DNA from: Psammoneis japonica
Taxonomy: Eukaryota
Direction of reading: 5' to 3'
Assembly: GCA_008632985.1 (NCBI GenBank)
Contig: QPGO01000064.1
Span: 1-64,000, forward strand
DNA length: 64,000 bases
In this document: positions 3,051 through 59,134 of the stretch, piece after piece
Position numbering within the stretch: position 1 is the stretch's first letter
Layout: every line of letters begins with the position of its first letter
Made by a program: the position numbers and the translations under genes
Notes under the pieces: generated by a model
The model's database searches: none
What the model was told of the DNA's origin: nothing
Seen by the model: only the letters and a program-made list of their open reading frames with translations

Positions 3051-4190
3051 ACGAGGAGAGCACTTTTTTGTGAGCCAGGAGATGGGTCAGTGAAAACACC
3101 ATGGGGTCAGTGAAAACATGGGGGGAGCCCATGAACCAAACACTCCAGAGTCACATTGCTGCTGCACAAAAGTGGACATCACTGGCTTGAAGCACTCCAT
3201 GAGGTTTTGTCAAAAGCTCCAGCACCAGCATGGCAGGGAAAACATCATGTCACAGAAGCCAAGAGAAGCAAGCACCTCCAACACAGCAACAACAATGACC
3301 GCCCACATGAGCACCAAGTTTCTGCCTTGTGACAAAAAAAGCCATTGGCACCATGGCATTTTTTGTCTGTGGTTGTTGTTCAACTTTTTTCAGTGCAAAC
3401 AGACAGGCTTGTTGTGAATGATTTTGTTTGGTGGTTTCTCCCCTTTCACAAGTGCAAAGTTCTTGCAACCTCATTTGCGCCTTTTTTCAACTCCCTGCTC
3501 TAAAAGAAATTGAACACACAAACAACACTTTTGAATCTGCTGCATCTGGGTTAGCTCACATGGTCATTGATGTGTTTTGGAGATCTGGCTTGGCCACCTC
3601 CTTGTGCGCTGACTTTGAAACAAGCACCCCGCTTTGTGGCAAGAAGCGCGCGCTGTTTTGCCGCTTCTTTTGGTGCACACATCATGTTCATTTCACATTG
3701 TTGATTGGTGCTGCTCACACAATTGAAAAGTTGAAAGAAGTTGTCAAAGCTGACTGCACACTGTCATGGTGACTTGTGCAAAAAACACATCACAGCGCTG
3801 CCCCGCATGCTGGGGAACATGGCCACACGTTGAACAGACTCCAGTGTGCACTTTGTCATGGAGAATGTGGAGTTGAAGAAGACCAGCTAGAGCTGGAAAT
3901 GGCTGCGAGGTGCTGGGTTTGCTTCAACTGGAACATGCAGGTGTGGGATCTGTGCTTCAAAGAACCAAGTTGGTCTTTTGGCACTCGCAGTTGACCAGAT
4001 GAGCTCCCCACTCTCCCAAGACCCATCACTTTTGGATCCTGCAGTTGCACAGCATGTTGATGGGCGCAGAGTGATTGACATGGAGCCCTTCATGTTGGGG
4101 GAGTGCACCCCAGTCTCTCAATCATTGTGGGAGCTGGCAGTGAGGGCAACGAAAGGGTTGGAACCGCGGTGCTCCGTCGGTTTACGACAA
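3050..4190. mobile_element. TpA/CpG-depleted repeat relic, family uncertain (weak piggyBac-like hints on minus strand)
   Basis: Only ~3 TpA seen in 1.1 kb. Cys/His-rich spurious ORFs. Family assignment rests on faint motif resemblance only. Confidence 0.45.
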
Positions 4191-7078: not shown

Positions 7079-7223
7079 GAGACCACGCGGTCGCACTTCT
7101 CAGTCCCTCATCAAAACGTGGCATTTAGTCTAGGTGTATGCTGTTGGCAAATCTTACAAGTATAATGGCACAAAAGCGTTTCCTATAAAAAAGATATAAC
7201 TACTGTAACTGTTCAGGTTTATG

Positions 7224-8760: not shown

Positions 8761-11049
8761 GCTATCCAAACGGTGTGTCATTGAAATAAATTCCTTTGGT
8801 GGCTGAAGATCACTGGTATGATGGCACGACGCTTTTGGGCCACGTCCGCGCGGCCATCGCTGTGATTTTCGACAAAACGCTCATAACCCATAAAATCAAT
8901 TTTTCTTCATCCAAAACGCAGACACGCGACGCAACTCAAGTCGACCATGGGATCGGTTGCGGCGGCGGCAATATTTAACACCAAGTGTAAGAAACACCTG
9001 GAGAGTATGTTAAAACCTCATTATGATGATAAGGTAAGGGTGATAAAGCAAGGCATCTTCATTTGATGCCTTTAATCGTCATCTGAACTTTTCACTCAAT
9101 TTCTTTGTTTCTTCTGCATCCGACACGACAGCAAATGTTTTGAAGGTGTAAAGTGGAAGGTATTAGGCAGGTACCCATGACTTGGACGATATATTCGATA
9201 AAGATGACATAGAAAGGCACAAGTTCTTTCTTTGGCAGTGTTTTCCGTTTCAAAAACAAAAGCAAGCGCGGAAATCCTTGCTCACAACGATCATTTGCAA
9301 CATTCAAATCGACTCAATGTCTACGTTATTCCATCCAAATGATTCATCAACGGCTAAAACACCACCCTCTATGTCTAAATGAGACGATCCTGGGCAGTTA
9401 TCAGTTGTCAAAAATTTATGAGAGTTCCTGAGGAGCCGCAAGCAGTTGGACCTCGGATCCTTTGAACATGCCAGCTCCAACCAAATCGATTCGGAGCACG
9501 GCTTAAATTGTTCATATTGTCTGCAAAGAGGCGTTTTGAAGCGGCACATATTTCTAAGATCGGGATCAAACTGTAGAAAATGCTGCCAGTGATAGGTAAA
9601 TGACGACAGCTGGCCGGAACCCATTTGTCGGACACCATTTTCATCATTTTGTACAGCATGCACGGAACGATGCGCAGTTTGTCAATAATGTAGATTGAAG
9701 GCTTTAAAATAGTGCAGGAAGCATCTAATATATAGAAGGACATTAAATATGAGCAATAGCAAGAGTCAACAAACACAATTAGTGACATTGAAGCCCGAAA
9801 GTAGGATTGATCCGGAACTTGGTGTGAGCAGGTGGTTCTCTCTGCAAGGCTCCAAGCGCTAGAAATCACTACTGCAATGATGAGAATAGAATTATCAATG
9901 AGTAATTTGACAAAAGTGGTATAGACTAGTGCTGTTAATGGCTAATTATGACTAGGAGCTACATGCCACGACCTCGAGGAGATGCACATGCCACGGCAGA
10001 TTGAACTGGCAGACCCCAGCATGCCGAGAAAACACTCGTATCAATGTCTATTCTCTGCTGAGCATAGTTACAGTTCGATCTTGAAGGTTTGAGGGTCTCG
10101 GCAAAGCCCCTTTGAGGGACAAACAAGGTTTACAACTGTGCTTTGCATCGATTTGGCTGCAGGTGCTAGATTCGCAGAAGTCTGAGTCCACCTGCTTGCG
10201 GGCCCTCACGTCCTTGAATTGCTCTTTTGTTACCTTGTCTTGCCCATATTAGCTTCCTTTATTACATGAAGGGGCTCTCTAATTCCTTGAACAACCCCTC
10301 CTCATGAATTTCTTGGCATTCTGAGTCGATCAGGCGGTTGCAATAGGAAAAGGCGACGGATGCACTTGTGGATGAGCTCTTGTTTTCAGCTCAGCATCAC
10401 CTCCCACAACAGTCAGGATATTTTCTCCTTCATCTCGATCATAAATATCGACGAATGAACGTTATCCTATGCCGCACCTTCAATGTTGAACCTTGAGAAC
10501 GTCGCCTGAAGTTGTCGGAAGCAGCGACATCGGGTGAAACAAGTGGGCGGCAGCAAAAGTCTTTTTTCGCTCTGTAAGTCCAAGATTCGCAATGTTTTAC
10601 ATAGAACGACAGACATGTAAGTAAATGATGAGATACAATTGAAACATTGCGAATGTTGACCCAAGAACGCAAGCAGTAACGTTCTTACCGATGAACGGCG
10701 ACTCACCATTTTCGTTCCGTAACTTTTACGCATTTTTTGTACTGTGAATTGTGGGAGGCAGATCTGAATTTCGGCCCAAAAAAAAGAAGGAAGGAGCGGC
10801 TTTTCAGTACTGCCGTAGAATCTACGTGCAAGATGACGTCACAGTACAAAATGCCATTTCTACGCAGCGGTGGCCGCTCCCGCGAGCGTCGTGTGTTTGA
10901 CAACCTCCGGCCCGGCACTCCAACTCGGCGTCCCGTAGAAATGCACGCGAACGAGATCACAAATCACACAGCATTCTCAAATTCTCCACTTGACACCAAC
11001 CTTCGACGTGACATTCACCGTTCTCACGCCTTCGGTCCTCCTTGCTTCG

Positions 11050-13355
11050 ATGATGAACAAAGCGGCGTGGATTGTGCTCGCTGCACTTGTCGTCCTTGAC
11101 GCAGCTTCGGCGCAAAAACAAGAAAAGCCCAACATTGTGTTGATTGTAGCGGATGATCTCGATGCTGACGAGCTTGGAATAACAGCTCAAGAAACAGACA
11201 TTTGGCCAACGAACACGGGAGCTGGACGGCGCGGATTCTGGACCAAGAAATATGATCCAAATGTCCTCACTCCTCACATTGATTCCATGGCAAAAGACGG
11301 CGTAATCCTGACCAAGTACTATGTCAGCAACACGCAGTGCACCGGAAATCGCTATGCCATGCTAACGGGACGGCAACCGACGCGTGGAGACGACTTACTG
11401 AAACACTTTCCTGCTGGAACTCTCGTCAATTTGGGTTGGGAAGCGGGAATTCTAAGAAACGAAACTAACGTTGCCAAATCTCTCCAAGCATTGGGATATC
11501 GGACTGGCATTATAGGAAAGTGGCACAACATTCCCGAGAACGAGTATGACGAACGTAGACTCCCTAAAAGAAATCGACCAGATCATGCTGCAAATGCCTC
11601 CTACAACCATACGCGGTCGGTTCATGGCAAACTCAAGGCTCATTATGACGCCCATGTGGCATACCTCAAGGATGGATATGGTTGGGACGTGGTGGATAGG
11701 ATGGAATGGGGTAATTCCATTGTAAATTTACAGTGGCAAGCCCAAGGTGCTGTTGAATTCATCAAAGAGAGCGCTAATAAGAGCCCCTTCTTCCTTTATG
11801 CTGCTCTCCCTGTACCACACGGTCAATATTTCTTTTCATATAACAATCTGGAGAGCTATGACGATCGAGTCACCTCCCGGGGGATCATCACTGATGTACC
11901 CAAGGTGCTGCCGCCTGTATTCAGCGTCTATGCCCGTACAAGAGCGGCTGGTGTGAAGAAAGCAAATGCAATGGGCACACGAATGGATGACTATGTTGGA
12001 GTGATTTTACGAGAGCTAAAAGATTTGGGGTTGAGTGACAACACCCTTGTACTGTTTACGAGTGACCACGCAAGTCGTGGAAAGAACGGATGCTATTCTG
12101 GCGGTGCTCACGTGCCTTTTATCGCACGATGGCCTGGAAAGATTCGGAAAAACACAAGAGTCGACTCCCTCGTGGCCAGCGTTGACTTAGCCCCTACGAT
12201 TATCGATGCCGCGGGAGGAACCGCCCCCGCTGATATGATTGACGGGATTAGCTTCAAACCCATGCTGTTGGGACAACCCGAACCGAAGAACTTCCGGTCG
12301 AGCATTATACTTGAAGCACAGACTACCCGCGCCGTTATCACGAAAAAATGGAGTTATATTGCGAACAGAGTGACCCCCAAGATTGCCAAGGCAATGGCAG
12401 AAAATCCAGGCGAAGTCTTTTGGTCCGGAGTCAACCACCACAATTATGACAACGAGCTAATTTATCCTGCGTACTGGGATGCGGACCAGCTGTATAATCT
12501 TGAAACCGATCTTTATGAACAGGTAAACCTCGTCGCGGACAAAAATATAGTGCCCAGCTAACATCTCTCAGGGCTGAGCTAGACCGGTATATTGCAACGA
12601 CTCGTCACTCCTTTGGTGAGTTTGGAACCGGCATTTACCAAGGTATCACGCAGGCTACACAGAACTTGTTCGAGTTCACCGAATCGGAAGGTTATGTGAA
12701 AGGAAGCCTTAAGGCCTCTGATGGTTGGGTTGGGACGTTGGAAAACTACATTGTGCACCCTACTGGGCACGGTTATCTACAACTTCCAAAAGGCAGTCAT
12801 GCACGGAACATCGCGGCGATGAATGCTGGTCTTCCACGTTCAAACACATATGAAGTTGTGTTGGACTTTAAATTTGTACGAAAACGAGGGAGACTTGATA
12901 AGAAGAGAGGTGTGCTCATGGCTGAGATAAAAGAGCAGTTCAAGAACGGAAACGAGGGTAGCAAACTGGGAATTTCTTTAATGCGATCAAGAAGCGGGCG
13001 TATATACTTGTTGTGGCTCGAAAGCAGCATGGGTGCAGAAGCGTGGAAGGCCAGAGGCACGGTCATCAATGAAGACCTTTTGGGTTTCGATGGTACAAAG
13101 GATACCGCCCAGAGTGACCAACTGCGGCTCACGTTCAAAGTTGAGCGCGCTTCAAACAAAAGTGACTGGAGCGTTACCAGCACGATGGAAAATCTCGACA
13201 ATGAGAAGGTCGTCTCTATGCTGACTCATAAACTGGACTCTTCTCAGGACTTCTATACAGATGATATTCTATTCGCCGCTATTAATTCGGTTGACTCAGA
13301 GGATTCGTCGCTCTTATTGGGTCGCACGGTTCAAAAGATCACCGCAAGGTCTTGA
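11050..13355 (+). CDS. Secreted sulfatase copy 2; 1-bp frameshift at ~12545
   Basis: Paralogue of copy 1. ORFs 10990-12561 and 12666-13355 join by restoring one base in GACAAAAATATAGT. Confidence 0.9.
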
Positions 13356-13819
13356 GGGACCACGCGGTCGCACTTCTCAGTCCCTCGTCAATACGTGGCA
13401 TTTAGTTTAGATGTACGCTGTTGGTAAATCTAACAAGTTAAACAAAACCGTGTCCTATAAAAAGATGTAACTAGTAGCTGTTCAGGTTTACGACGGACAG
13501 ATGCTGTATATAAAGTTGTTCTCCTCATCTCAAGCCACATGGCCGACGAAAGGGCAATTTCTCTGTCATTTCCCATTTTGAATTTGAGACATAGCCCAAG
13601 GATATTTTAGTTTTGTGTTGTGGCGATCTGGAGGAGGAAGGTCCAGGTCCAACCATTGGGGTGTGATTGTGCAACTGAGACGCCATCACTTCCCAATGGA
13701 TCTTCACAAGAAAGACATAGTCCACGCACTGCCAAGACCTTGCGTCGTCTGACACTAAAAAAGGAATCATTGTCTTTGTGGATCGAGTTTCTATTTTCCA
13801 CTTCTCTTGTACTTGTACG

Positions 13820-14255: not shown

Positions 14256-14550
14256 CTGCTGGCGATAGCGTAGACAATAAGTCATCGTACAGTAACAAAA
14301 TGTTTAACGAAAATGACTTATTGTATCTTTTGTTACATAAATCAAAACAATTTGTTGGACATCTGCTATTTAACATATTGGATCCCGAGACAAAAAGAAA
14401 TCAGGAAAGAATGAATCCACCGATGCATCACAAATCACACAACGTACTGTAACATCACACAAGCATTCTACTCGCAATCTTAACACTCTAACTCAACACC
14501 AACATTCGACGTGATTCATCGTTCTCGCGCCTTCGGTCCTCTTTGCTTCG

Positions 14551-16856
14551 ATGATCAACAAAGCGGCATGTATCGTGCTTGCTGCACTTGTTGTTGACGT
14601 CTTTGACGCATCTTCGGCGCAAAAACAAGAAAAGCCCAACATTGTATTGATTGTAGCGGATGATCTCGACGCCGACGAGCTTGGAGTAACAGCTCAAGAC
14701 ACAGGCACTTGGCCAACTAATACAGGAGCTGGACTACTCGGCTTGTGGACAAAGAAACATGATTCAAATGTACTCACTCCGCAGATTGATTCGCTGGCCA
14801 AAGAGGGTGCACTCCTAACCAAATACCACGTTAGCAACACGCAGTGCACAGGAAACCGCTATGCCATGCTGACTGGACGACAAGCAACCAGAGGAGACGA
14901 CTTGCTAAACCACTTTCCTATTGGGACTCTCGTCAATTTGGCTTGGGAAGCGGGTATTCTGAGAAACGAAACCAATGTTGCCAAATCTCTCCAAGCATTG
15001 GGATATCGGACCGGCATTATTGGAAAGTGGCACAATGTTGCCGAGTCTGACGAACGCAGGCTCCCTAAAAGAAATCGACCAGATCATTTGCCACAGGCCA
15101 CCTACGATCACACGCTGTCGGTTCAAGACAAACTCAAGGCTCATTATGACGCGCACGTGGCATATCTCAAAGATGGATTCGGCTGGGATGTGGTGGATAG
15201 GATGGAATGGGGTAATTCCATTGTAAATTTACAGTGGCAAGCCCAAGGTGCTGTCGAGTTTATCAAAGAGAGCGCTAATAAGAGCCCCTTCTTCCTCTAT
15301 GTTGCTCTCCCTGTGCCACACGGTCAATATTTCTTTCCATTTAACGATCTGGAGGGTTTTGACGATCGAGTCACCTCCCGGGGAATCATCACCGACGTGC
15401 CCACGGTGTTGCCGCCTGTATTCAGTGTCTATGCCCGCACGAGAGCGGCTGGTGTGAAGAAAGCGAATGCTATGGCCACACGAATGGATGACTATGTTGG
15501 AGTGATTCTGCGAGAGCTAAAAGATTTGGGGTTGAGTGACAACACCCTTGTACTGTTTACGAGTGACCACGCAAGTCGCGGAAAGAACGGATGTTATTCT
15601 GGCGGTGCTCACGTGCCTTTTATCGCTCGTTGGCCTGGAAAGATTAGGCCAAACACAAAGATTGACTCCCTCGTAGCCAGCGTTGACCTAGCCCCCACGA
15701 TTATCGATGCCGCGGGAGGAACCGCTCCTGCAGATATGATTGACGGGCATAGTTTCAAACCCATGCTGTTGGGACAACCAGAACCGAAGAACTACCGGTC
15801 GACCATCATACTTGAAGCACAGACTTGTCGAGCCGTTGTCACAAAAAACTCGAGTTACGTTGCGAACAGAGTGACCCCCGAGATTGCCAAGGCAATGGCA
15901 CAAAATCCAGGAGATGTCTTCTGGTCTGGAAAGGATCACCACAACTATGATAACGACGTCATGTATCCTGCGTACTGGGATGCGGATCAGCTGTATAATC
16001 TTGAAACCGATCTTTATCAGCAGGTTAACGTCGTCGCGGAGAAAAGCTATGATGCCCAGCTAAAGTCTCTCAGGGCCGAGCTAGACCGGTATATTGCGAC
16101 GACTCGTCACTCCTTTGGTGAGTTTGGAACCGGCATTTACCAAGGTGCCACGCAAGCCACACAGAACTTTCTCGAGTTCACCGAATCTGAAGGTTACGTG
16201 AAAGGAAGCCTTAAAACCTCTGACGGTTGGGTTGGGAACTTGGACAACTACATGGTGCACCCTACTGGGCACGGTTATTTACAACTTCCAAAAGGTAGTC
16301 ATGCAAGGAACATCGCGGTGATGAATGCTGGTCTTCCACGTTCAAAACGATATGAAGTTGTGTTGGACTTCCAGTTTGAATGTAAAAAAGGCAGCCTTGA
16401 TAGGAGGCGTGGCGTGCTCATGGCTGAAATCAGAGAGCTGTCGAAGAACGGAACAGGGAGGAGCGCTTTGGGAATTGCTTTGATGCGATCAAGAAGAGGG
16501 CACAAATACTTGTTGCGGCTCGCAAACAGCATGAATGTGGAATTGTGGAGAGCCAAAGGAACGGTCATCAACGAAGACCTTTTGGGTTTCGGTAGCTCAA
16601 AGGTGTTGTCCAGAGTGATCAACTGCGACTCACGTTCATACTGGAGCGTGGTTCAAACGAAAGTGACTGGGCTTTTACCGGCAGGTTGGAAAACCTCGAC
16701 GATGAGAAGGTTGTATCTATGCTGACTGGCACATTGAACTCTTCCCGGGACTTTTTCTCCGACGAGGTTCTGTTTGCCAGCATTAATTCTCTAGACTCAG
16801 AGGATTCGTCGCTCTTATCCAGACGGACAATTCAAAGGATTGCCGCAAGGTCGTAA
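14551..16856 (+). CDS. Secreted sulfatase copy 3; 1-bp frameshift at ~16602
   Basis: Paralogue of copies 1 and 2. After the shift the frame continues QSDQLRLTF...IAARS to TAA at 16854-16856. Confidence 0.9.
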
Positions 16857-30988: not shown

Positions 30989-32264
30989 ATGAAGGCTGCT
31001 TTGTTGATATTCGTCGGGGTTACGGCCGTGGAAGGCTTTGTTGCTCCCAACATGCCGTTTGTTCCGGTAAGAATCTTCCCAGCAGAATTGAGAGTTTCTG
31101 TTTGCAGTTGGTCGCAGACAGACACGAGAGAAAACCCTCAACACGATTTTTTGACGTTGTTCTCACGATTCCTCACGATTAGATGAACAACGTGTTGGGA
31201 AGCAGAATCCATAAGCCTATTTACATGGCAGACTCGACCATGTTCGTAGATTCGTCGGAAGGAATGGGACCAGGAGGTGGTAACAATCCCGCGGAGGAGT
31301 CGTTGGGATCATCGATGCCCTTGCAGGCTGAATCAGCAGAAACACCCCAGCCAGTCGTTGCCGAAGTTGAAACTCTCGAGGAGATGAAAGTGAAGGATCC
31401 GATTGGAGTACTCTTGAATGAAGTTCGTGCTCTGGATATGAATACCGTAATCAACACGGCTGTATTGGTTTGCGTTGTTCTTGCAGTGCTTACCAAGCTC
31501 TCCACAGTAGATTCGGGATTGACCAGAGGATGGTCGGTTGAAGAAATTGCGCTTCGAATTCCTCTCGACACTTGGCAGTCGTATTCTGCCGTTTTGGAGG
31601 AAGCGCCCATCTCCACAAAGGCAGTCACGAGTGCCACGGTGTACACGATTGGAGACGTCATTTCACAGACGACCGAGGGAAGAGAGATTGGAGAATTGGA
31701 CCGTCCTCGTGTTCTCCGTAGTTTGTTGGCGGGCCTTATTGGTCACGGACCACTTTCGCACCTGTGGTACAATTTCAGTGAAGGAATATTCAACGATTTC
31801 TTGCACTGGACGGCTTGGTGGTCCTTTTTTCCAAAGGTTGTTCTTGATCAAACCACGTGGGGGCCAATCTGGAACAACAGTAAGTCAATTCCTTATTGAA
31901 GTATCGTTGGTTGTGAGTTGAGGTTCGAGACACAATTCTTACATTCCTCTCAATGTTGGTTATGGTTTTTACAGCCTACATTTTGCTCCTTGGTCTCATG
32001 AAGTTGGACAAGCCCGAGACGATTTTTAGTGAAATGAAACGCACGACCATTCCCTTAATTGTCTCTGGTCTCAAGCTATGGCCTTTGGCGCACTGCGTCA
32101 CATACGGTCTGATTCCGGTCGAGAATCGACTCTTGTGGGTCGATTTGGTGGAGATTATCTGGGTCACCATTCTCTCCACCGCTGCATCCGGTGCAGCTGA
32201 GGAGGTCATGTTGGAAGAAGAAATTGCAGAAGAGGAAGTAGCAGCATCCGCCGCCACAACATGA
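30989..32264 (+). CDS. Mpv17/PMP22-family membrane protein, plastid-targeted, 3 exons
   Basis: MKAALL...VEG|FVAP, PISTKAVTSATVYTIGD, GPLSHLWY, KVVLDQTTWGPIWN, LKLWPLAHCVTYGLIPVENRLLWV. Introns ~31067-31182 and ~31880-31974. Confidence 0.9.
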
Positions 32265-32812
32265 CACGCCGCAACAGAATACTGCTTCTTCCCAATGTTT
32301 TCGACTCGCTGCCACACTGGTGTCGAGACATTATTATTACACATTATGCATCCGCATGCCACACGCACACACCACAATTTTCTGCGTTACAAGACAAAGC
32401 ACACCACACAAGTAACCCATATAGTCATTTGCACACACATTGCTTACATATTGAATTTAGAGTATTTTAATTGCTCCGAGGGTAGATTCGCATCTTTCAA
32501 GTAGCTGCAGCATCCATTGGTTCGTTCTCAGTTCCCGGAACACGGTTGTGGTACTTTGTCCGTCATTGTCTGAAACAATTCCTATCCGTGACGCTGCAGT
32601 CGTTGGCTTGAAGGGAGAAAGAATCTGGAAGTAGAAAGTATTGGGCAAGGGACTCCGAGACCGCGGTTATGAGGAAACGTGAGAAGAACGATCTTAGTCT
32701 CCAAAAAAGTAGAGTTTTACTTTTAAATATATGAAAACATTAAAATCAGTTACGCAAAAAGAAACGTCCCATCTGATGGATCAATCTTCAACTACGCGAG
32801 CATGCTGCCGGA

Positions 32813-33484
32813 TTAGAAAGGATTACCATTATGATCACACGGACAGGGTTCAATGTTGCTGAAAAAATCGTGTAGCTGTGAGGCCGGACATCGCTTTGCC
32901 AGAGCACCTTGCCATCACCGTAAAGGGTGAGCCTGTTCTCGGTAGGATGTTGGTCATATGCAGCACAAAGATAACAGTCTTTGAGCCTAGTATTCCTCGC
33001 ATTGGACTCCCACTTGATTTCCCAATGCCGGCCAAGTCTTTTCCTTCGAAAAGGAGCAACTTGCAATCCCTCTGCAAGTACATGGTGAGGTTGGAGCCAC
33101 CGGAAAACTTGTTATCGGACGGGCTGTACAAGTTTCCTCTCTTGAGGGAATTGTAATAGGGCTTCTCATTCTGCGAAAGGGAGAAGCAGTCCAAGCTATT
33201 CCAAACTCCGAACCTCTTCTTGATATATACATAGAACAAGTGTCTCCTTGGAGGTAGAGTTTGTAGAAAGCTCTTCCGAGGTTCGTGCCAGTGGCATAGA
33301 CGATCTCATTGTCCCCCCCTCCCGGATGTCGGTAGACGATCAAGTTCCCATCCGAATGCATTGCCACGAAAACCTCTCCCCTCTGCTTGGGTTTCCTGTA
33401 TGCCAAGGAGTCTTGAATTGGCCGTTAATCTTCCGCTCCACCATCAGATTACCACAGTTCCTTAGACGCAGCCGGCAGTTGCCG
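32813..33484 (-). pseudogene. 5'-truncated, frameshifted bulb-type (B) lectin-like duplicate
   Basis: Aligns to 39274-39955. MHSDGNLIVY and LQRDC motifs. Frameshifts near 33235 and 32860. No signal exon. Confidence 0.8.
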
Positions 33485-38490: not shown

Positions 38491-38720
38491 TCAGAAGGAA
38501 ACAAAATGTGCAGCTGTTCCCTTGATCATCTCTGGTTTCAAGTTGCGGCCTTTGGTGTGCAGCATCACACATGGGTTGATTTCGGATGAGAAACCACCAA
38601 AACACTCTTGCATGTGGGTTGATTTGGTGGAGATTGTCTGGGTCACCATTCTCACCACCACTGCACCACCACAACAACATGACATGCACCACAAGAAAAT
38701 GCTGCTCCTTTCCAAAATGA
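38490..38720 (+). pseudogene. Hypermutated duplicate of the Mpv17 last exon
   Basis: VPLIISGFKLRPLVCSITHGLIS...WVDLVEIVWVTIL versus IPLIVSGLKLWPLAHCVTYGLIP...WVDLVEIIWVTIL. The homologous block continues to ~39955. Confidence 0.9.
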
Positions 38721-39273
38721 TTTAGACTCACTGCCACGCTGCTGTCCAGACATCATTGTCACAAAAATTGTGCATCCTTGTGCCACACACCCACACACCA
38801 CAGTTTTCTGCTCTTCAAGATGGAGCACACTGCACACCCCACAAGTGTCTCATGCAGTCATTTGCACACCCATGCTTTCATGTTAAGTCTGGAGAGCATT
38901 TTAATGGCTCCAAGGGTAGATTCTGTTCTTTCAAGCAGCTGCAGCATCCCTTGCTGGGTTCATAACCGGAAAACCGTCATCGCACTTTGTCCGTCAGTGG
39001 CTGAAACAATTCCTAACCATGACACTGCAGTAATTGGCTTGAAGGGACAAAGAATCTTCAAGTAGATAGTGTCGGGCAAGGGACTCCGAGACCGCGGTTA
39101 TGAAGAAAAGTGGAAAGAACGATCTTACTGTTGTCCAAAAGTGGAGCTACTCTAACATATGAAAACATTTCAGAATCAGTTATAAAGAAGAAACGTCCCA
39201 TCTGATGCTTTTTTCTTTGTACGACTGCTAACTTCTCAGGATCAATATTCAACTACGCTAGCATGCTGCCAGA

Positions 39274-40291
39274 TTAGGAAGGGTTTCCGTTATGGTCACA
39301 CGGATAGGGCCCATTGTCGCTCAAACAAATCGTGTAGCTGTGAGGCCAGACATCGCTGTGCCAGAGCACCTGGCCATCACCGTAAAGGGTGAGCCTGTTC
39401 TCAGTAGGATGCTGGTTATATGCAGCAGAAAGATAGCAATCCTTGAGCCTAGTATTCCTCGTATTGGATGCCCACTTGATTTCTCCCATGTCAGCCAAGT
39501 CATTTCCTTTGAAAATGATCAAGTTGCAATCCCGCTGCAAGTACATGGTGAGGTTGTCACCGCCGGAAAACTTGTTGTCGGACGGGCTGTACAAGTTTCC
39601 TCTCTTGAGGGAATTGTAATAGGGATTCGCGTTCTGAGAAAGCGAGAAGTAGTCCAAGCTATTCCAAACTCCGGAACCTCTTCGTGACAGATAAAGAGAG
39701 CAGGTGTCTACTTGGAGGTAGAGTTTGTAGGAAGCGCTGCCGAGGTTCGTGCCAGTGGCATAAACGACCTCGTTGTCATTTCCTCCCGGACCATTCTCTC
39801 GGTAGACGACCAAGTTCCCGTCGGTCTGCAATGCCGCGAAAAACTCTCCACCTCTGCTTGGGTTTCCTGTCTGCCAAGAAGTCTTGAATTGGCCGTTAAT
39901 CTTCCGCTCCACCATAAGATTACCACGGTTGTTTAGACGCAGCCGGCATTTGCCGCCAGGGTTAACCTTTGCGTTAGACACCCCGGGGTACAAGCGTTCT
40001 GCGGGTGGCGAGCCCATTATCTGTTCAATAACACCAAGTTTCCTCTACAAACCAGAAAAACGCAAAACAGTATGATCAGCAAGAGTTCGCCTCGTCACAA
40101 CCCTTCACTTTACCTGAACTTACATCGTCTTCTTCTCCAAGTCGCCTCTGGACCAACAAGATTGGAAAAACAGATAAACAACATCAGAAACTCTAACTAT
40201 ATGGCTGTTCGAGATTCATACTTCCGATACGTACACTTTCTCCCTGTCCAACGAGAAGCAGCGCTAGGATTGCGATTGAAGGGATCTTCAT
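39274..40291 (-). CDS. Secreted bulb-type (B) lectin-like protein, 3 exons
   Basis: MKIPSIAILALLLVGQGES signal exon, 24-nt microexon RRLGEEDD, LQTDGNLVVY, YATGT, LQRDCNLIIF, WASNT. Confidence 0.8.
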
Positions 40292-48779: not shown

Positions 48780-49530
48780 ACTTCGGTGTCTGTCAGTCTT
48801 GGGCTTCGTGCTCGCGATGTGTTCTCTGATTCTCTGGCCTGGCTGTGCTACACACACTCATTTTGTTTTTGCGGTAGCGTTGGTGCCTCAAACCACGGTT
48901 CTTGGGAAATGGGTCCACACACAGAGGGGCAACAAGGACACCATGCCAGCAGAACGACGTCAAAAGCTAGACGACATTGGGTTTGTTTGGGACGCTTTTG
49001 AATGTGCTTGGAATGAAAAATGCCAACAGTTGTGTGAATGCCGCGAGACTCATGGAAACAGCAAGCACTGCCATTTGTGATGCTTCAACTCATTTCTGTC
49101 TCATCATGATCTAAGATTGTGCTCTGTTCATTTTGTGTTTGCGGCAGCGTTGGTGCCCAAAACCTTGGTTCTTGGGAAATGGGTCTCAAAGCAGAGGGGC
49201 AACAAGGATGCGATGACAGCTGAACGACGTCAAAAGCTAGACGACATTGGGTTTTCTTGGACGGGCAAGAAACTCAGTGAATGGGAAGTGCACATGGCCA
49301 TGATGCAGGCAACTGGGAAAGCTGACTGTGCTTCTCCTGCTCCTGCTCCGGCAGCTGCTGCGCACGCCGCTGCTCCACCGCCGGTGCTCTCATTGCGCCT
49401 GCCATTGCGCCTGCTTTCGGTTCACTCGCACGGCGGAGCTAGAACAGAATCGAGAGCTGTTCGATGCCGAGGCGCACCTGGAGCAGCGCTGTTTTGGAAG
49501 GCCATCTCTAGAGAATTGACAGCATACACT
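48780..49530 (+). pseudogene. Helicase-associated (HA) repeat gene relic, TpA-depleted
   Basis: Two LGKWVxxQR...ERRQKLDDIGFxW repeats. WNEKCQQLCECRETHG has Cys at positions that are normally aromatic. Intron-like spacers. Confidence 0.7.
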
Positions 49531-49803
49531 TAGAATCGGCACTAGAGAGCATCTACGGTATATTATCCCACTTCAATGACTTTTTGATGTTTTGATCCCT
49601 CCACGGCACCAGACACGTCACGCTTGGCGGCATTTTTTGTTATGGAAAATATATTAAAATATGAATACATTTGATTAGATCCAACGCTTTGTCTGTCCGT
49701 TGACATTCCTCAAAAAGACTCGAAAAAAAACACGAGTTCGCGTTTGCAACACTACCAACGGGTCTCACTAATGTGTTTAGTTTGTGTTACTGTTGTTGAC
49801 AAA

Positions 49804-52800
49804 ATGCCTGCTGCATCAAATACCACCGACAGCCCTAGCAACCGCAATCATATAACTAAAATGATTGAAACCATTCATCACGCTCCTGTGATGACGGAAG
49901 TGAGCCGTGACGAAAAGGAGAATGCAACAGACGGCTCTCTCCATAGCAACAACAACAGCCCCAGAAATGACTCCAAAACCGCTTCTTCTTCTACAAGCAA
50001 ATTGCAGTGGTTCTTCTTTGATCTTCCCCTTGCGACGGTCTTTTTCGTATGTCTCTCCTTTCTCCTCACACAGCATGTATACCACACGCTCGTTCTTCCT
50101 ATTGTCGATTCCTACCGCCGCGGAGACATGGATGATTTTTACCCGGAATTGGAAAACGACTTTACCTATTACAACCGTCTCTGTGACGCATCCGACATTA
50201 CCACGACGGACTCGAGTGATTTGATTGTTCACAATGGCAAACAAGCCGCCGATACCATGCTGAAACACGGATCAATTTTATTCAAAAATGTAGTCAACAA
50301 CGAAACCACCACGGCACTTCGGGCTTATCTCGATTTCGTCAATCATAAGTTGGAACGAAATGCCTTGGGATTTAACGAGAATTTCTTTGACGAAGAAGAC
50401 CGTTTGGCTCTGGGATTGGGCATTCATGATCACCCCGCTATTGCACAAGCGCTTCAGCAAATTGGAACCCATCCCGTTGTCAAGGAATCGCTCGAAGCCA
50501 TTTTAGGTCCCGATCCGGCCGTGTTGGAGATTTCAACCATGACATCCATGCACGGTGCCCCAGATCAAGGTATTCATTCCGATAGTGATTGGTTTGGATC
50601 GTCACTCTTGTATGGAAGAAACTTTTTGCATTCCTACAGCATGTTTGTGGCACTCCAAGATACTACTTCCCAAATGGGTGCCACTACGGTCTGCCCTGGT
50701 AGCCATCATTGTGCCAATCAAGATTTAGAAGATGTTTGTCTAGACAATGGTGCTTTTGAAGTTTCTTCGAATGGACACACGGGTGAGAACGGTGCTTTGC
50801 TTACGGGTGATGCGGTAAGTTCTTTTATTGTTTCTTCAGAAATTTTGTTCGTCATCATTTTCCTGGTGTTACGATCCTCTTACGATTTTTCGCTGTATTG
50901 TGTTTTTGAAACAGATGCTCTTTGCACAAGACGGTTGGCACAGAGGAGCAGCCAATCAAGACCCCAACACGGATCGCATCATGTTTATCGTTACCTACGC
51001 ATCCCGAACCAAACAAACGCCGAGTGATTATCGTCAACAAGCACTCGGAACGTATTATTATCAACGATGGAACATGTGGGGACACACCTACCAAGATCTC
51101 AAGACGGCAGCCACAACCATGGCACTACCCTTTGGTGCGTTGCGCGGATTGGGTTTGTGGAAATGGCCCAATGCCAATTGGGGTATTACGTGGATTGAAC
51201 AATTTAGTCGGCAAATGGCCAACAAGGAAGATTTTTATGATTATGATTGCTTGTTGGATTTTGTCAATGTCCTCCGCAAATGGTCGGTTCCGGAATTCTT
51301 GCTAGCCAATTTGACGGGAAACGAGGAAGAAGATACGTGGGATCGGTTTCTAGAAGAAAGCATGAACAATGTGGCTACCTTTTTGTGTCTAGTGTATGCT
51401 GCTGTGCTGGGTGGTTACGTCTTGATGCGGTTGCTCATGACGGTCATTTCTAGAAACAAGAACCGTCCCTTTGCTTGGTTCAAGCGTCTTGTACTGACGC
51501 ACACTGCCGTTTTGCTTCTCGTGGGATTATTGTACAAGTGGATTCAATCGTCTCACTTGGCAAAGAGCGTCACGTCGGGACACGTGTTTGACAAGCCCTA
51601 TGATTATGATCGTATCGACTCGGAGCACGGTGCCTCCTTGGGACCCACCACGCTTCCCACACGCAACGATGTCTTGATTGGTTCCAGATTTGATTCCGAC
51701 TTTTTGGGACTTGCCAATCGCTTTCTGGAAGTGCATCCCGGCAATGAGCGTTTCAACGATTTGATTCAAGGCGTTGCAGACATGCCAAGCAATGTACAAG
51801 ACGAGGCTGTGAAACACATTGTCCAGACTATTGAAGCCCGTGACGAATCGACGGGTTTGATTGGACGCTTTCTTCTTCAAGACTACACCAATGGGCATTG
51901 GACCACAACGACCCATGAGGATGCGATCGAGTACACCAAGAAGCAAATCAAAATGCTGTCTAGCCGACTCCACAAGGGACTTGGCAAGCATTTGGCCTCA
52001 GTCTTGGCCGAGAGCCGGTTTGGTGCCAACCGTGCCACGGCCATGTCGCGCAAGTTTGCTCCAAAGTTTGTCAACCAGTGGGAATCCATTGTCTTTGCTA
52101 AGAAAGAAAAAGAGTTGGGATCCAAGTATTGTCGCGTCCCTGTAGACGAGCCGTACAATGTCTTCTTTGATTATTTTCAGATTGTTCCGACTGTCACGAC
52201 TCCATCATCCTTGCTTGCGGCTCTACCTATGCGTGCCGCAACGTATTCGGGTCTACCCATTCCGGAAGAGCATGACTTTGACGTGGGCCATTTCGTCTTG
52301 GCCAATTACGGAAACTTTGGACGATGGATGCCTGCAAAGATTGAAGGCTTTACAGAAGATGGTGATTACCTTTTGCAATACGAATCTGGAACCGGAGCCG
52401 TAGAGGGGACCGAGGACCAATTGAGAGTGTTTGACTCGTTCGTCGCGGGCGACGAAGTGAACGTGGAGGTGGGAGGACTAACAGATCGGTGGTTGGCAGC
52501 CGTGGTTACCGATTGTCATCCCGATGGTACCTTTTCAGTAGAGTATGAAGATGGTGTCGTTGCGACTGGAATCAAGAATATTCACATTCGATTTGCCGGC
52601 TTGCCCGGTCCCGCCGCCGAGCGCATTCAAGCGGACTTCTACACTTTGAACGAACAAGTCGAGGGCAACTATCTTAATGAGGGCGAATGGTTTTTAGGCA
52701 CAATTACAGCGGTTAACTACTTCGATGGCGCGTACCAGTACGACGTCCTTTACGATGACGGAGATGAGGAGACCGATGTGGACCCCGAGTTTCTTCGCAA

Positions 52801-52813
52801 AGTGCGGAGTTAG
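49804..52813 (+). CDS. Membrane protein with PhyH-like 2OG-Fe(II) dioxygenase, DUF6824-like domain and three Tudor/Agenet-like repeats (copy 1; intron ~50815-50930)
   Basis: QGIHSD, FVALQD...GATTVCPGSH, WHRG.AN...R, NDVLIG..HPGNERF..GRFL..GHW, W.PAKI...Y.LQY, YDVLYDDGDEETDV. Confidence 0.8.
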
Positions 52814-52918
52814 CCAGCGGGTTGCAAAGTAGAAGAATGTGTGTACCTTTTATCAAATAATTTTACATGTAACAGAATAACAAAATAGGCGTGGCTTATT
52901 GCTACAAAGCGAAAAACT

Positions 52919-53220
52919 TCATGAGGACTCGTCCTTTGCCATTATTGGCTTGACATGCGAGTCACATGCCGCATGTTCAAGTTGCACCTGTACCAAACAA
53001 TGCTTTCCCGGAATCATGGCTTGACTCAGCTCTTTTGTGACCGTGACGCTGTTTTCTCCCAAGGTTCCTCCAGAGCAAACATCTGGATCTGTTTGTAGTT
53101 CTTCCACAGCCTTGGCCAAGATTGCATTTTTCCTGTCTGTTGAGGGAAGAAAGATTTTTAAGCATTGACCACAGACTGCAATTCTGGGAACATGTTCCAA
53201 AGAAAAAGAGACATCACAGT
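52919..53220 (-). pseudogene. Mutated duplicate of LSM gene exon 2, followed by TpA-poor sequence to ~53460
   Basis: Aligns to 56889-57160 with repeated TA to CA/TG changes. Exon 1 is absent. Confidence 0.85.
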
Positions 53221-53787
53221 CAAATGAAAAGAGTTTTTGCTGACTTTGTGCTGCAGTCACAGCCAAAGTCACTTCATCAAGAGCCCCGATGAACAGTCAA
53301 AGTCAAAGTCAGGCAGTCAGCTGAAAGGACGACCACAAGTCAATTAACAGTCATGGTCAGTCATGTCTCATGGTGTTCAGTGAGCAAACTGACTAACATG
53401 CATCACTTGTTGAGGCCATCTGCAACTTGTTTCTGCTCAGCGCGCGTGCCTTTATTTGATCGAAAAGGTTTCCTTCAAGTTGGAGGGAGGAGTGAGTCGA
53501 AGTGGTACTGTACGTACCGGTACGTACCTGGTAGTACCGGTACATAATGATGTACCGTACAATAAGTCTGTTAGGGCAACTTAAAAGTCATACCGGTAGT
53601 CATAGTCATTTCAAAGAAACAAGCAGTGACTTGCTATACTATTGTACTACGCTACTGAATTTTGTATTTACTGGAGTGTCTGTCCGCTGACATTCTTGAA
53701 AAAGACTCGAAAATTCCAAAAAACACGACTTCGCGTTTGCAACACGGGTCTCACTATTTTGCGATTTCATGATCTGTAGTTGACACA

Positions 53788-56778
53788 ATGCCAGCTGCAT
53801 CGGATACCACCGACAGCCCTAGCAACCGCGAACGCAACTAAAATGATTGAAACCATTCATCATGCTCCCGTGATGACGGAAGTGAGCCATGACGAAAAGC
53901 AGAATGCCACAGACGGCTCACTCCACTACAGCAACAACAACCACAGCCGCAGAAATGACTCCAAAACCGCTTCTTCTTCTACAAGCAAACTGCAGTGGTT
54001 CTTCTTTGATCTTCCCCTCACGACGGTCTTTTTCGTGTGCATCTGCTTTCTCCTCATACAGCATATCTACCACACGCTCGTTCTTCCCATTGTCGATTCC
54101 TACCGCCGCGGAGACATGGAGGATTTCTATCCGGAATTGGAAAACGACTTTACCTATTACAACCGTCTCTGTGACGCATCCGACATTACCACGACGGACT
54201 AGAGTGATTTGATTGTTCACAATGGCAAGCAGGCCGCCGATACCATGCTGAAACACGGATCGATTTTATTCAAAAATGTAGTCAACAACGAAACCACCAC
54301 GGCACTTCGGGATTATCTCGATGACGTCAATCATAAGTTGGAACGAAATGCTTTAATTTCTTTGACGGAGAAGACCGTTTGGCTCTGGGATTAGGCATTC
54401 ATGATCATCCCGCCATTGCACAAGCGCTGCAGCAAATTGGAAACCATCCCGTCGTCAAGGAATCACTGGAAGTCATTCTAGGTCCCGATCCGGCCGTTTT
54501 GGAGATTTCGACCAGGACATCCATGCACGGTGCCCCAGATCAGGACATTCATTCCGACAGTGATTGGTTTGGATCGTCGCTCTTGTGTGGAAGAAACTTT
54601 TTGCATTCCTACAGCATGTTTGTGGCACTCCAAGATACAACTTCCCAAATGGGCGCCACTACGGTCTGCCCTGGTAGCCATCATTGTGCCAATCAAGATT
54701 TGGAAGATGTGTGTCTAGACAATGGTGCTTTTGAAGTATCTTCGAATGGACACACGGGTGAGCACGGTGCTTTGCTCACGGGCGATGCGGTGAGTTTTTT
54801 TCAGAGACTTGTTGGTCATCTTTTTCTTGGAGTTTCGATCCTCTTATCGATTTGCGCTGTATTGTTTTTCGCTAACGATTCTACAGTTGCTTTTTGCACA
54901 AGACGGTTGGCACAGAGGAGCAGCCAATCAAGACCCCCACACGGATCGCATCATGTTTATCGTTACCCACGCCTCCCGAACCAAACAAACGCCGAGTGAT
55001 TGTCGTCAACAAGCACTGGGGACGTATTATTATCAACGATGGAACATGTGGGGACACACCTATCAAGATCTTAAGACTGCAGCCACAACCATGGCACTAC
55101 CCTTTGGCGTTTTGCGGGGACTGGGTTTGTGGAAATGGCCCAGCGCCAATTGGGGCATTACGTGGATTGAACAATTCAGTCGGCAAATGGCAAACAAGGA
55201 AGATTTTTATAATTACTTTTGCTTGTTGGATTTTATCGATTTCCTCCGCGAATGGTCGGTTCCGGAATTCTTGCTAGCCAATTTGACGGGAAAGGAGGAA
55301 GAAGATACGTGGGATCGGTTTCTGGAAGAAAGCATGAATAATGTGGCTACCTTTTTGTGTGTAGTGTATGCTGCTGTACTGGGTGGATACGTCCTGATGC
55401 GGTTGCTCGTAGCGGCCATTTCCAGAAACAAGAACCGTCCCTTTGCTTGGTTCAAGCTCTTGTACTGACGCACACTGCCGTGTTGCTTGTCGTGGGATTA
55501 TTGTACAAGTGGATTCAATCGTCTCACTTGGCAAAGAGCGTCACGTCGGGACACGTGTTTGACAAGCCCTATGATTATGATCGCATAGACTCGGAGCACG
55601 GTGCCTCCTTGGGACCCACCACGCTTCCCACACGCAACGATGTCTTGATTGGTTCCAGATTTGATTCCGACTTTTTGGGTCTTGCCAATCGCTTTCTGGA
55701 AGTGCATCCCGGCAATGAGCGTTTCAACGATTTAATTCAAGGCGTTGCAGACATGCCAAGCAATGTACAAGACGAGGCTGTGAAACACATTGTCCAGACT
55801 ATTGAAGCACGTGACGAATCGACGGGTTTGATTGGACGTTTTCTTCTTCAAGACTACACCAATGGACATTGGACCACAACGACCCATGAGGATTCGATCG
55901 AGTACACCAAGAAACAAATCAAAATGCTGTCCAGTCGACTCCACAAGGGTCTCGGCAAGCACTTGGCCTCAGTCTTGGCCGAGAGCCGCTTTGGTGCCAA
56001 CCGTGCCAAGGCCATGTCGCGCAAGTTTGCTCCAAAGTTTGTCAACCAGTGGGAATCCATTGTCTTTGCTAGAAAAGAAAAAGAGTGGGAATCCAAATAT
56101 TGTCGCGTCCCTGTAGACGAGCCGTACAATTTCTTCTTTGATTACTTTCAGATTGTTCCAACCGTCATGACTCCATCATCCTTGCTTGCGGCTTTACCTA
56201 TGCGTACCGCCACATATTCGGGTCTACCCATTCCGGAAGAGCATGACTTTGACGTGGGCCATTTCGTCTTGGCCAATTACGAAGACTTTGGACGATGGAT
56301 GCCTGCCAAGATTGAAGGCTTTACAGAAGATGGTGAGTATAGTTTGCGGTACGAATTTGGAACTGAAGAGGCGACCGAGGACCAATTAAGAGTGTTTGAC
56401 TCGTACGTCACGGGCAATGCCGTGGACGTGGAGGTGGGTGGTGAAACAGATCAGTGGTTGGAAGCCGTGGTTGCCGATTGTCATCCCGATGGTACCTTTT
56501 CTGTAGAGTATGAAGACGGTGTCGTTGCGACTGGAATCACGAATATTCACATTCGATTTGCCGGCTTGCCCGGACCCGCCGCCATGCCCTTTCAAGCGGA
56601 CTTCTACACTTTGAACGAACGAATCGAGGGCAACTATCTTGATCGGGGCGAATGGTTTCCAGGCATAATTACAGCGGCCAACTACTTCGATGGCGCGTAC
56701 CAGTACGACGTCTTGTACGATGACGGAGATGAGGAGACCAATGTGGACCCCGAGTTTCTTCGCAAAGTTCGGAGGTAG
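53788..56778 (+). pseudogene. PhyH-DUF6824-Tudor copy 2, disrupted
   Basis: Tandem paralogue of 49804-52813. In-frame TAG at 54200-54202 (TCG in copy 1); deletions or frameshifts at ~53835, ~54352 and ~55457. Confidence 0.8.
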
Positions 56779-56888
56779 CCAACGGGTTGCAAAGTAGAAG
56801 AACATGCATACGGTACCTGGTATCACATAGTTTTACATGTAACAGAATAGCAAAATAGAAGTGGCTTGTTGCTACAACTCGAAACTCT

Positions 56889-57453
56889 TCATGAAGAATC
56901 GTCCTGTGTCATTACTGGTTTGATATGCGAGTCATATGCCGTCTGTTCAACTTGCACCTGTACCAAATGCTTTCCCGGAATCATGGCTTGACTTAGCTCT
57001 CTTGTGACTGTGACGCTGTTCTCCCCCAAGGTTCCTCCGGAGTAAAGGGCTGGATCTGTTTGTCGTTCTTCGACAGCCTTGGCCAAGATTATATTTTTCC
57101 TACCCAATGAGGGGAAGAAAGTGTTAAGTATTGACTGCAATTCTAAGGACGTGATCCAAGAGAAACAAGCGTGTTAAAACTACTTACAGTCTGTCAATCG
57201 CGAGCAGGTCCCCAGTGACTTGACGTCCATCGTCTAAAGTGCATTTGAGTTTGGATCCCAACAAATTCTCCATGGCTCGTGCTGCTGGTGCCGTTCGTGC
57301 GGGTTGAGTCTTTACAATTGCATCGTTGTGTGCAGCAGCATCGAGCTCAGACTCTGCGTCGAGTGTTGGGACCGCGTTTGTTGTTTCCTCCGTTACTGCC
57401 GTGTTGGGATTGGGCGCTGCGTCTGACTCAGCGGCGTTTGATTTAACAGACAT
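56889..57453 (-). CDS. LSM-domain protein (NAA38/LSMD1-like NatC subunit), intron ~57101-57187
   Basis: LLGSKLKCTLDDGRQVTGDLLAIDRL|KNIIL...E.R...RELSQAMIPGKHLVQV. Confidence 0.8.
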
Positions 57454-57865
57454 GTAGACACTCCAAGAGAATCACTGCTTGTTGATAAGGATAAAAGTTG
57501 TTGGTTTCAATACTTGGTAGAGAAGAGCAACGGGCAACAGTGGTGCTACAGTCTGCAGTGGGTTTTGTGCCATCGTGATGATCTGACGGACTTGATTGCT
57601 TTTATTTTTGTGTTGAGTTTGCCGTCTGTCCTTCAGCTCTGAAACCTGATAAGCGGAGAGCTCGTCGGAGCTCAAAAGTTCATCAGAACAACCACGCGCG
57701 CGCAAAACGCAACAACCATACCTTCGCATACCGGTAGCATCATACCGTAGGGCCTACAACAGCGCAGAACAGGAGATGATGGAGCCGATGCTGCGACGAT
57801 GATCATGTTTCTGCGCCGCTAGAGAGAAAGGTTAATCAGCGGCAAAGGATAGTAGAGTAACAAAA

Positions 57866-59134
57866 ATGAAGATTCGTTTCTTTGTCATGGGATTTGCTTC
57901 TCATCAAACATGGGCAGAAGGATATCAACGGGCTGCTAGTAGTAGCTCGCATCAACACGAAATTCACGTGGAACTCGTTTCTGGAGAGCGATGGAAATAC
58001 CGAATGATGTCAGCAAGTGCCGATTTGTGGGAAGGAAAAATAGATCCAGATGATGATGTTGTTGTGGTGGATGGAATGTTGGATGTTACAGTCTTGGTAG
58101 CTTTGCTCTGGAAAGGCGCAGCAGCGAGAAAAAAGCCTCCTCCCAAAGTGTTGGTGTATCTGCACGAGAACCAGCTTACGACACCCTTTACCACGCAAGA
58201 TCGGGATAAGAAGAACAATACGCATTGGCATTACGGTATGGCTCACTGGAAATCATTGCTCGTGGCTGATGGGTTTGTTTTCAATAGTCAAACGCATCTG
58301 GACGCATTTGCGAGAGCTCTGCCAAACCTCATTAACGAGCAGTGCCCACGAGATGCCATCGAGTGGCATTTGAAACGAATCCAGGAGCTGGTTGAGACGA
58401 AATGTACTGTTTTGAGATATGGGTTGGAACTAGATGAATTGCTGCAGCTGGTGCAACAAAGCAACAAACGGCCTTTTGATCAACTCGGTTGTCCTCCAGC
58501 GACGAGTTCTTCTTCACCGACCATCTTGTGGAATGCTCGTCTAGAAGAGGACAAGAATCCGGCTGCCTTTTTGGATTTATTGCATCAGGTACGAAAACGA
58601 AAAGATAAGGACCTAGACTTCCAACTGATCATTCTGGGAACGGACCCATCTGTGGAGCAAAAGTGGGAAACGAGAATACGAAATGAGTTTTCCAAGGAAT
58701 TGCTTTACTTTGGATGGTGTACGGACCGAAAAGAATATGCGCGGTGGCTCCAAAAGTCGTCTATTGTCGTTTCTACAGCTTATCACGAAACGTTTGGAAT
58801 ATCCATTGTGGAGAGTGTATTTTGTGGAGCACTCCCACTGCTGCCCAAACGCTTGTCTTATCCCGAACTGTTTCCGCCAAACGAATTTGGAGACCACCAT
58901 CTTTACTCTACCACTCGTGGGGATGGCCTAAACAAGCTACTGAATTTGCTCTCCATTGTAGTCAAGGATCCAGAGAAACACGCCGCGATGCAAGCTCGAG
59001 CCAAGTCTGCTGTGGAACGCTTTCGGTGGTGTCGCATGGGAGCCGTCTACGATGATTTCTTTTCCAACATTGCTGCTGGGGAGCCAATCACGTTGGCTGG
59101 GAAAAGGGCCGCCACATTATGTACTCGAAGATAA
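57866..59134 (+). CDS. GTDC1: GTDC1/QTMAN-like glycosyltransferase (DUF3524 + GT-B)
   Basis: RWKYRM, YLHENQLTTP, FNSQTH, ILWNARLEEDKNP, STAYHETFGISIVE, PKRLSYPELF. Confidence 0.8.
   Translation: MKIRFFVMGFASHQTWAEGYQRAASSSSHQHEIHVELVSGERWKYRMMSASADLWEGKIDPDDDVVVVDGMLDVTVLVALLWKGAAARKKPPPKVLVYLHENQLTTPFTTQDRDKKNNTHWHYGMAHWKSLLVADGFVFNSQTHLDAFARALPNLINEQCPRDAIEWHLKRIQELVETKCTVLRYGLELDELLQLVQQSNKRPFDQLGCPPATSSSSPTILWNARLEEDKNPAAFLDLLHQVRKRKDKDLDFQLIILGTDPSVEQKWETRIRNEFSKELLYFGWCTDRKEYARWLQKSSIVVSTAYHETFGISIVESVFCGALPLLPKRLSYPELFPPNEFGDHHLYSTTRGDGLNKLLNLLSIVVKDPEKHAAMQARAKSAVERFRWCRMGAVYDDFFSNIAAGEPITLAGKRAATLCTRR

Follow-up and report, generated by a model that had tools for sequence, protein, structure and literature searches.

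For mutation directed at the TpA dinucleotide, a single published case could be found: a preprint of 2026 that deals with viral inserts of a rhizarian alga and that, in its available text, stops short of an enzyme or a targeting rule. In this alga, Bigelowiella natans, TpA-only A>G/T>C mutation was measured in integrated NCLDV and virophage DNA; according to the accessible portion of the preprint, the process is ongoing, with a rate per generation raised about 1000-fold in a subset of lines, TpA-poor transposon domains are also seen, and ADAT2 is proposed (Mettrop et al., bioRxiv 10.64898/2026.01.13.699255). No earlier report of TpA hypermutation in diatoms was found in the literature outside subscription journals.

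Fungal RIP depends on pairing, on the sexual cycle and on RID. Its dinucleotide-specific transitions in repeats can overrun adjacent single-copy host sequence, as described in the available sections of one account (PMC3105345), and RIP converts C to T, which creates TpA. TadA/ADAT enzymes and adenine base editors convert A to G through inosine, and the natural site of TadA is given as U-A-C-G in the accessible part of the source (PMC10586758). In diatoms, silenced transposons also undergo 5-methylcytosine CpG decay.

The locus described here lies in the window, a stretch of 64,000 nucleotides that forms the first part of contig C61 in a 91-Mb, 597-contig assembly of Psammoneis japonica. As in Bigelowiella, to judge from the available text, T/A to C/G transitions occur at TpA on both strands, regionally, in chromosomal DNA and without requirement for a second copy. 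Unlike Bigelowiella, a rhizarian with viral inserts, the organism here is a stramenopile and the affected sequences are DNA transposons and adjacent host DNA; as far as the accessible text allows comparison, near-complete erasure of TpA in blocks, paired with CpG loss, also sets the present case apart. The same text mentions neither diatoms, nor a 3′-pyrimidine preference, nor spill-over into host genes, although its Fig. 2B and Table S2 may show context, and its rates are measured per generation, whereas the evidence here is historical. Compared with the confinement to foreign or mobile regions in Bigelowiella, blocks here centre on mobile DNA and two tracts reach host-derived duplicates. The overrun into neighbouring sequence resembles RIP leakage and spans about 260 bp at an orphan exon and about 600 bp at 38517-39160, being absent at several other edges. 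Unlike in RIP, the direction of change is the opposite one, mutation is confined to a single member of the duplicated pair and the greater part of the duplication escapes. The TA-free blocks are also CpG-poor, as in CpG decay of silenced diatom transposons, but the TpA process acts on another base and is faster. Repeat-seeded regional TpA hypermutation, with a spill of some 260 bp into a dead host exon, is proposed as the whole explanation of the locus with a probability of roughly three in four.

Reciprocal gene loss after a 3.5-kb tandem duplication

Self-BLAST delineates a tandem duplication whose left unit (49690-53205, plus strand) is 90% identical over 3.5 kb to 53677-57165. Each unit originally held a plus-strand PhyH/Agenet-domain gene and a convergent LSM-domain gene. 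The left PhyH copy (49804-52813, plus strand), identified by Pfam and represented by a spliced contig, has open frames and an intron at about 50815-50914 and retains its TpA. The right copy (53788-56778, plus strand) is a pseudogene, interrupted by a stop at 54200 and by deletions of 13 bp and 1 bp that shift the frame; it keeps its TpA as well and serves as a negative control within the locus. The right LSM-domain gene, hereafter the parent (56889-57453, minus strand), is intact and encodes about 158 amino acids in exon 1 (57188-57453) and exon 2 (56889-57099); the intron between them (57100-57187) is fixed by a contig of run X2 that skips 88 bases with GT-AG ends. The left LSM copy, hereafter the orphan, retains only exon 2 (52919-53132, minus strand), an open frame with a 3-bp in-frame insertion, together with 70 bases of the 3′ end of the intron (53133-53203, minus strand); exon 1 is gone. 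The region 49690-57165 has undergone reciprocal gene loss after tandem duplication, PhyH surviving on the left and LSM on the right.

The convergent genes of the left unit are separated by a 105-bp spacer (52814-52918), 15% diverged, which keeps all nine shared TpA and forms the outer limit of the mutated tract. On the other side of the orphan, homology to the parent stops near 53203, and not at 53220 where the earlier note had placed the end of the segment. There the intron stub abuts a near-terminal fragment of a TA-depleted dispersed repeat (53204-53445, plus strand), which has two TpA left and recurs at six other loci with 68-88% identity. It is followed by a TA-rich junction and the upstream region of PhyH copy 2 (53449-53676), of which 37 bp are shared with the margin of a TA-free block on contig C75. 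Inverted ends and a target duplication were looked for at the repeat and none was found; at a locus on C21, a TA-free block that starts with the same repeat end holds a hAT transposase remnant (PF05699). The repeat family contains long internal arrays of units of about 190 bp (L011:3600-6200 and L013:4700-9100). Directly upstream of PhyH copy 1, at 48858-49550, lies a TA-poor fragment of a helicase-associated (HA) domain repeat, for which run X1 yields many variant contigs.

The LSM-domain gene may correspond to Naa38/LSMD1. Single exons have no Pfam match to the LSM domain (PF01423), and two orthologues (P0002 and P0011) score above the cut-off; exon 1 weakly resembles Sm protein B (E 0.22). 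Neither exon retrieved a homologue in word-based searches. A full HMMER scan yielded 41 homologous proteins, and six homologues that were looked up include a close one from Fragilaria crotonensis and two others from marine eukaryote transcriptome sets. An alignment of 25 of the 41, mostly the longer and better-scoring ones, lacks the Ala and the two Cys that the orphan carries at three main sites, where the Tyr of the parent is usual. Because the aligned orthologues never show the orphan residues at these sites, the parental state is ancestral. Conserved Tyr, Tyr, Ile, Arg and Arg are replaced in orphan exon 2. Its codon changes outside TpA comprise 11 replacement and 7 silent ones, several of them conservative; the orphan copy may have been functional for some time before truncation.

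TpA conversion in the orphan exon and its boundary

The alignment of orphan and parent spans 273 columns with 37 differences. Nine of the 12 parental TpA have become CpA (six) or TpG (three) in the copy and three are retained, whereas in the reverse direction none of the four TpA of the copy corresponds to CA or TG in the parent. Six of the eight TpA in the exon and three of the four in the intron stub are converted. The seven parent-to-copy changes listed in the earlier note are all present and contain eight of the TpA changes; the ninth (parent 57144, copy 53185) was missing from that list. Full tabulation also upholds the excess of TpA-directed changes over other transitions: counted per base, transitions affect 9/24 TpA positions compared with 7/125 at other A/T sites (Fisher P 9.3e-5) and 17/249 at all remaining sites (P 8.1e-5), so that TpA bases change roughly 12-fold more often than other A/T bases, with a lower bound of 4.8. 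Since unpolarised pairs always give some TpA excess, TpA being rare, five paralogue pairs of the window were pooled as background, where turnover amounts to 137 of 865 TpA (16%); the orphan exceeds it with P 8.7e-6. Outside the two tracts at repeat edges, the highest value of any 12-site window is 7/12 converted. With 12 sites only, the 95% interval for conversion in the orphan is 43-95%, and the exon by itself is a small replicate.

One duplicate alone is affected, with nine changes in the copy versus none in the parent (P 0.004). Selection on the parent is not the cause of this asymmetry, because intronic and synonymous TpA behave in the same way: five out of five are retained in the parent and four of these are lost in the copy. 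CpG sites survive, as had been observed, five of nine being kept, two having become CpA and two carrying transversions; the loss of 2/9 (22%) is not above background (P 0.26).

The amino-acid changes LYSGG>VCSGG and AYDS>ACDS had been read correctly, the L>V portion not being due to a TpA change. The change CCTAC>CCTGT had been interpreted as destruction of the splice acceptor, an interpretation that fails: it alters the -3 base, converting TAG to CAG, and the AG at 53133-53134 is intact. Loss of the acceptor in the orphan is thus rejected. For annotation, TpA mutation removes TAA and TAG stops and turns Tyr into Cys or His; dead sequences stay open and appear older than they actually are.

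The converted sites define a tract in host-derived DNA (52954-53186, 9/11 TpA converted) that has its far limit some 260 bp away from the repeat fragment and runs into it directly at about 53204, while the other 3.2 kb, which do not touch the left edge of the fragment, are at background. None of the nine TpA in the adjoining spacer is converted, as against 9/12 in the orphan (P 0.001), despite the 15% divergence of the spacer. A step at 52950, a boundary picked post hoc, separates 9/11 converted sites on the repeat side from 0/10 beyond (P 2e-4). The remaining duplication shows 13/104 converted (P 1e-5 against the orphan), and within it the PhyH part does not depart from background in either direction (13/95 and 23/105; difference P 0.13), with 98 TpA in the 3.1-kb pseudogene and 108 in the intact copy. 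TpA sites differ two to three times more often than other A/T sites, the gene part of the duplication included. The affected stretch covers 0.26 kb of the 3.5 kb, and about 92% of the duplication is at background. Three sulfatase paralogues of the window (4745-7221, 10993-13490 and 14496-16852), with 84-88% identity, likewise display background TpA turnover. Because the PhyH parts, the pseudogene and these paralogues are all at background, duplication or loss of function alone is insufficient.

For the intact PhyH gene, a spliced-type contig extends over the spacer to 52877, which fits a boundary set by this neighbouring gene, with the proviso that contigs cannot reveal transcript ends. The spacer TpA could also have been retained through selection on 3′ untranslated signals. 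The locus provides controls for targeting, in that duplication and pseudogene status are insufficient and repeat adjacency is sufficient, with an edge just short of the 3′ end of an intact gene; this sufficiency is qualified by repeat edges that show no leak (position 7220, repeat copies on C21 and C36, and the right side of the fragment itself). What the locus displays is overflow from a domain centred on the repeat; host duplicates per se are not the target. The exon had been described as an independent replicate on a host-gene fragment rather than a TE. It does constitute a host-derived before/after pair, but its independence from transposons has to be given up, as it abuts a 240-bp TA-free repeat fragment.

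Run X1, which may be the source sample and therefore verifies the sequence rather than representing a second strain, provides a short-read contig over 52746-53979 whose sole difference falls outside the exon, and a contig over the parent (56683-58000), also with one difference. Across the duplicated region X1 departs from the window at four positions with full contig depth, all of them where the window equals its paralogue; such differences are expected at 90% identity, and polishing cross-talk is not thereby shown. Run X2 is labelled DNA yet holds intron-skipping contigs; its lack of cover on the orphan and its low cover on PhyH copy 2 are not taken as evidence of silence. At 52897, 22 bp past the orphan stop, X1 has C where the window has T (TA to CA) and the parent has TG. 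The edge of the tract could here carry a recent or still-segregating hit, a weak case as one among about six differences. At 57033, in the parent exon, X1 and X2 agree on A against T in the window, a synonymous difference that creates a parental TpA and reflects an allele or an assembly error; if the X1 allele is assumed to be ancestral, the count becomes 9/13 (P 2e-5).

Transposon copies, sequence context and other repeat edges

A DUF7869-domain DNA transposon is present in nine copies with 88-96% mutual identity over 2.6 kb where compared. These were aligned from 14 matches as the 89-91% group, leaving aside the copy in the window itself, three copies at 77-78% and one short match; a hAT search gave three copies only, which were excluded from the counts. 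The alignment contains 111 inferred TpA sites, which take up 201 of its 506 variable columns, and at 92 of them both TG and CA occur among the copies. As the same sites carry either product, the changes arose separately after copying, on both strands. Per copy, 63-93% of TpA are converted, compared with 21-46% at 140 CpG sites, and the orphan, with 75% and 22%, agrees with this profile. The process turns TpA into TpG or CpA on either strand in the resident DNA of transposon-containing blocks and outpaces CpG decay.

The edited fraction of TpA depends on the base 3′ of the A, being 0.54 for C, 0.45 for T, 0.28 for G and 0.25 for A, and 35 of 43 informative sites follow the predicted direction (P 4e-5): T-A-pyrimidine is preferred on the strand whose A changes. 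In depleted blocks, which were defined by low TpA, survival is 0.55 for TTAA, 0.31 for CTAA/TTAG, 0.13 for CTAG and at most 0.075 for other contexts. Among the TpA that survive in the orphan, TTAA is as expected, and GTAC at 52991 is unexpected, this context being nearly always erased in TA-free blocks; three of five informative orphan sites agree with the T-A-pyrimidine direction and two oppose it. The context preference and the controls at the locus open the process to experiment in a group for which genetic tools exist. The end of the DUF7869 transposon (L028-L035, about position 2655) reads TTAA in most copies and TCAT in two, which suggests that TTAA is the target of the element and has itself been mutated in two copies.

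Across the window, observed TpA is 0.51 of expected, with several CpG-poor blocks that are almost devoid of TA; one of these, 2001-4000, stands at 0.04. A Copia-like reverse transcriptase region at 1-1400 has low TpA yet largely retains CpG. A second leak tract occupies 38517-39160, a duplicate of 32050-32700, where loss of TpA and CpG tapers off with distance from a TA-free block within about 600 bp. In the pair 32050-33484 and 38517-39955, 14 of the first 16 TpA and 5 of the following 13 are converted, after which background is reached; CpG loss lies near the block. Sharp edges without leak are found at 7220, between a sulfatase paralogue and a TA-free insert, at the repeat copies on C21 and C36, where TpA persists within the first 100-200 bases of the element, and on the right side of the 53204-53445 fragment. 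As the boundary varies with the neighbour, a chromatin domain suits the data better than sequence recognition. The pattern is one of action by region rather than by sequence identity, and conversion halts before it reaches the intact PhyH gene at its 3′ end.

Mechanism, alternatives and candidate enzymes

A tandem duplication copied the PhyH gene together with the LSM gene convergent to it. On the left, the LSM copy lost exon 1 where the transposon-type repeat sits in the intron, and on the right the PhyH copy decayed, which leaves one survivor of each gene. The region acted upon would be a domain of silenced chromatin that the repeat seeded and that active genes delimit. A longer element was probably once present and later deleted, which would account for the one-sided tract.

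A different account holds that any silent, promoterless host DNA is targeted regardless of transposons and that the orphan was hit through loss of its promoter. Both leak tracts indeed lie in dead duplicates, edges beside intact genes are sharp, and pseudogene copy 2 has a slight excess of TpA loss (23 versus 13). However, this excess is not significant, with TpA totals that remain close, and in the second pair the loss declines with distance from the block, all of which makes the account quite unlikely, even though copy 2 may retain a promoter and is weakened as counter-evidence to that extent. RIP-like pairing, the reading implied by the earlier note, would sense the duplication and mutate duplicated DNA. 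It suits a tract located within a closely linked tandem duplicate but is improbable, considering that a single copy is hit, that most of the duplication and all three sulfatase paralogues stay at background, and that the target region in Bigelowiella is single copy according to the available text.

Relaxed selection on a pseudo-exon combined with ordinary TpA mutability, GC-biased conversion or chance would draw on the low TpA content of the whole window, on the higher variability of TpA even in the gene part and, for chance, on a region chosen after being seen. Such an explanation is highly improbable against a roughly 12-fold rate that leaves other A/T sites unraised, a diverged spacer that lost no TpA, 12-site windows that never exceed seven away from repeat edges and a pseudogene copy 2 that stays near 16% turnover. 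The four full-depth X1 differences in the duplicated region might point to an assembly or polishing artefact, a practically negligible prospect given the X1 contigs over orphan and parent, which refute it for the nine changes.

Under repeat-seeded regional hypermutation, the chemistry would be, with odds slightly better than even, enzymatic deamination of DNA adenine of the TadA/ADAT type, the resulting inosine then being read as G. This is favoured because TadA recognises U-A-C-G, which resembles T-A-pyrimidine, and because ADAT2 is the enzyme proposed for Bigelowiella. Modification of the thymine opposite the A, which leaves an identical footprint, is rather unlikely. Oxidised thymine can pair with G, and the same regional process could, as a possible though not a likely course, involve a thymine lesion (5-hydroxymethyl- or 5-formyluracil at purine-T-A) or an error-prone polymerase, a difference of chemistry only. 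T-A-pyrimidine equals purine-T-A on the opposite strand, so that sequence cannot distinguish the two; the U-A-C preference of the TadA family, as given in the accessible part of its source, matches the motif and speaks against the lesion. More tentatively, and at somewhat less than even odds, silenced chromatin in diatoms may recruit a native editor of DNA adenine, with T-A-pyrimidine as its motif, that destroys several transposon classes and spreads into adjoining host sequence until it reaches an active gene. Such an editor would be a pairing-free, A-to-G counterpart of RIP, shared with a rhizarian alga and either ancient in SAR or convergent.

Searches for deaminases returned nine and five matches, which by eye comprise dCMP deaminase, RibD-like, TadA-like, ADAT2 and oxygenase-fused deaminases and one other small deaminase; among them ADAT2 alone was compared with structures. 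The ADAT2/Tad2 homologue, at a locus on C26 (E 1.4e-16), carries the Asn noted by the Bigelowiella authors. The same Asn occurs in all three aligned ADAT2/Tad2 chains (vertebrate and yeast), so that this ADAT2 is ordinary and the Asn not diagnostic. Natural TadA/ADAT enzymes act on tRNA, as far as the available account goes, and a specialised DNA-acting or chromatin-targeted version was not found in this genome, the deaminase matches having no obvious chromatin-reader domain in the partial frames that were read. A TET/JBP search was blank, as was its control, and counts neither way. One open frame (L022:310-1785, on G000 C79) appears by eye to join a zinc deaminase domain with a 2-oxoglutarate/Fe(II) oxygenase and probably serves nucleobase salvage. 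A two-domain dCMP deaminase-like gene is present with identical scores on G000 C41:505477-506590 and C317:55748-56795, possibly as a haplotig pair.
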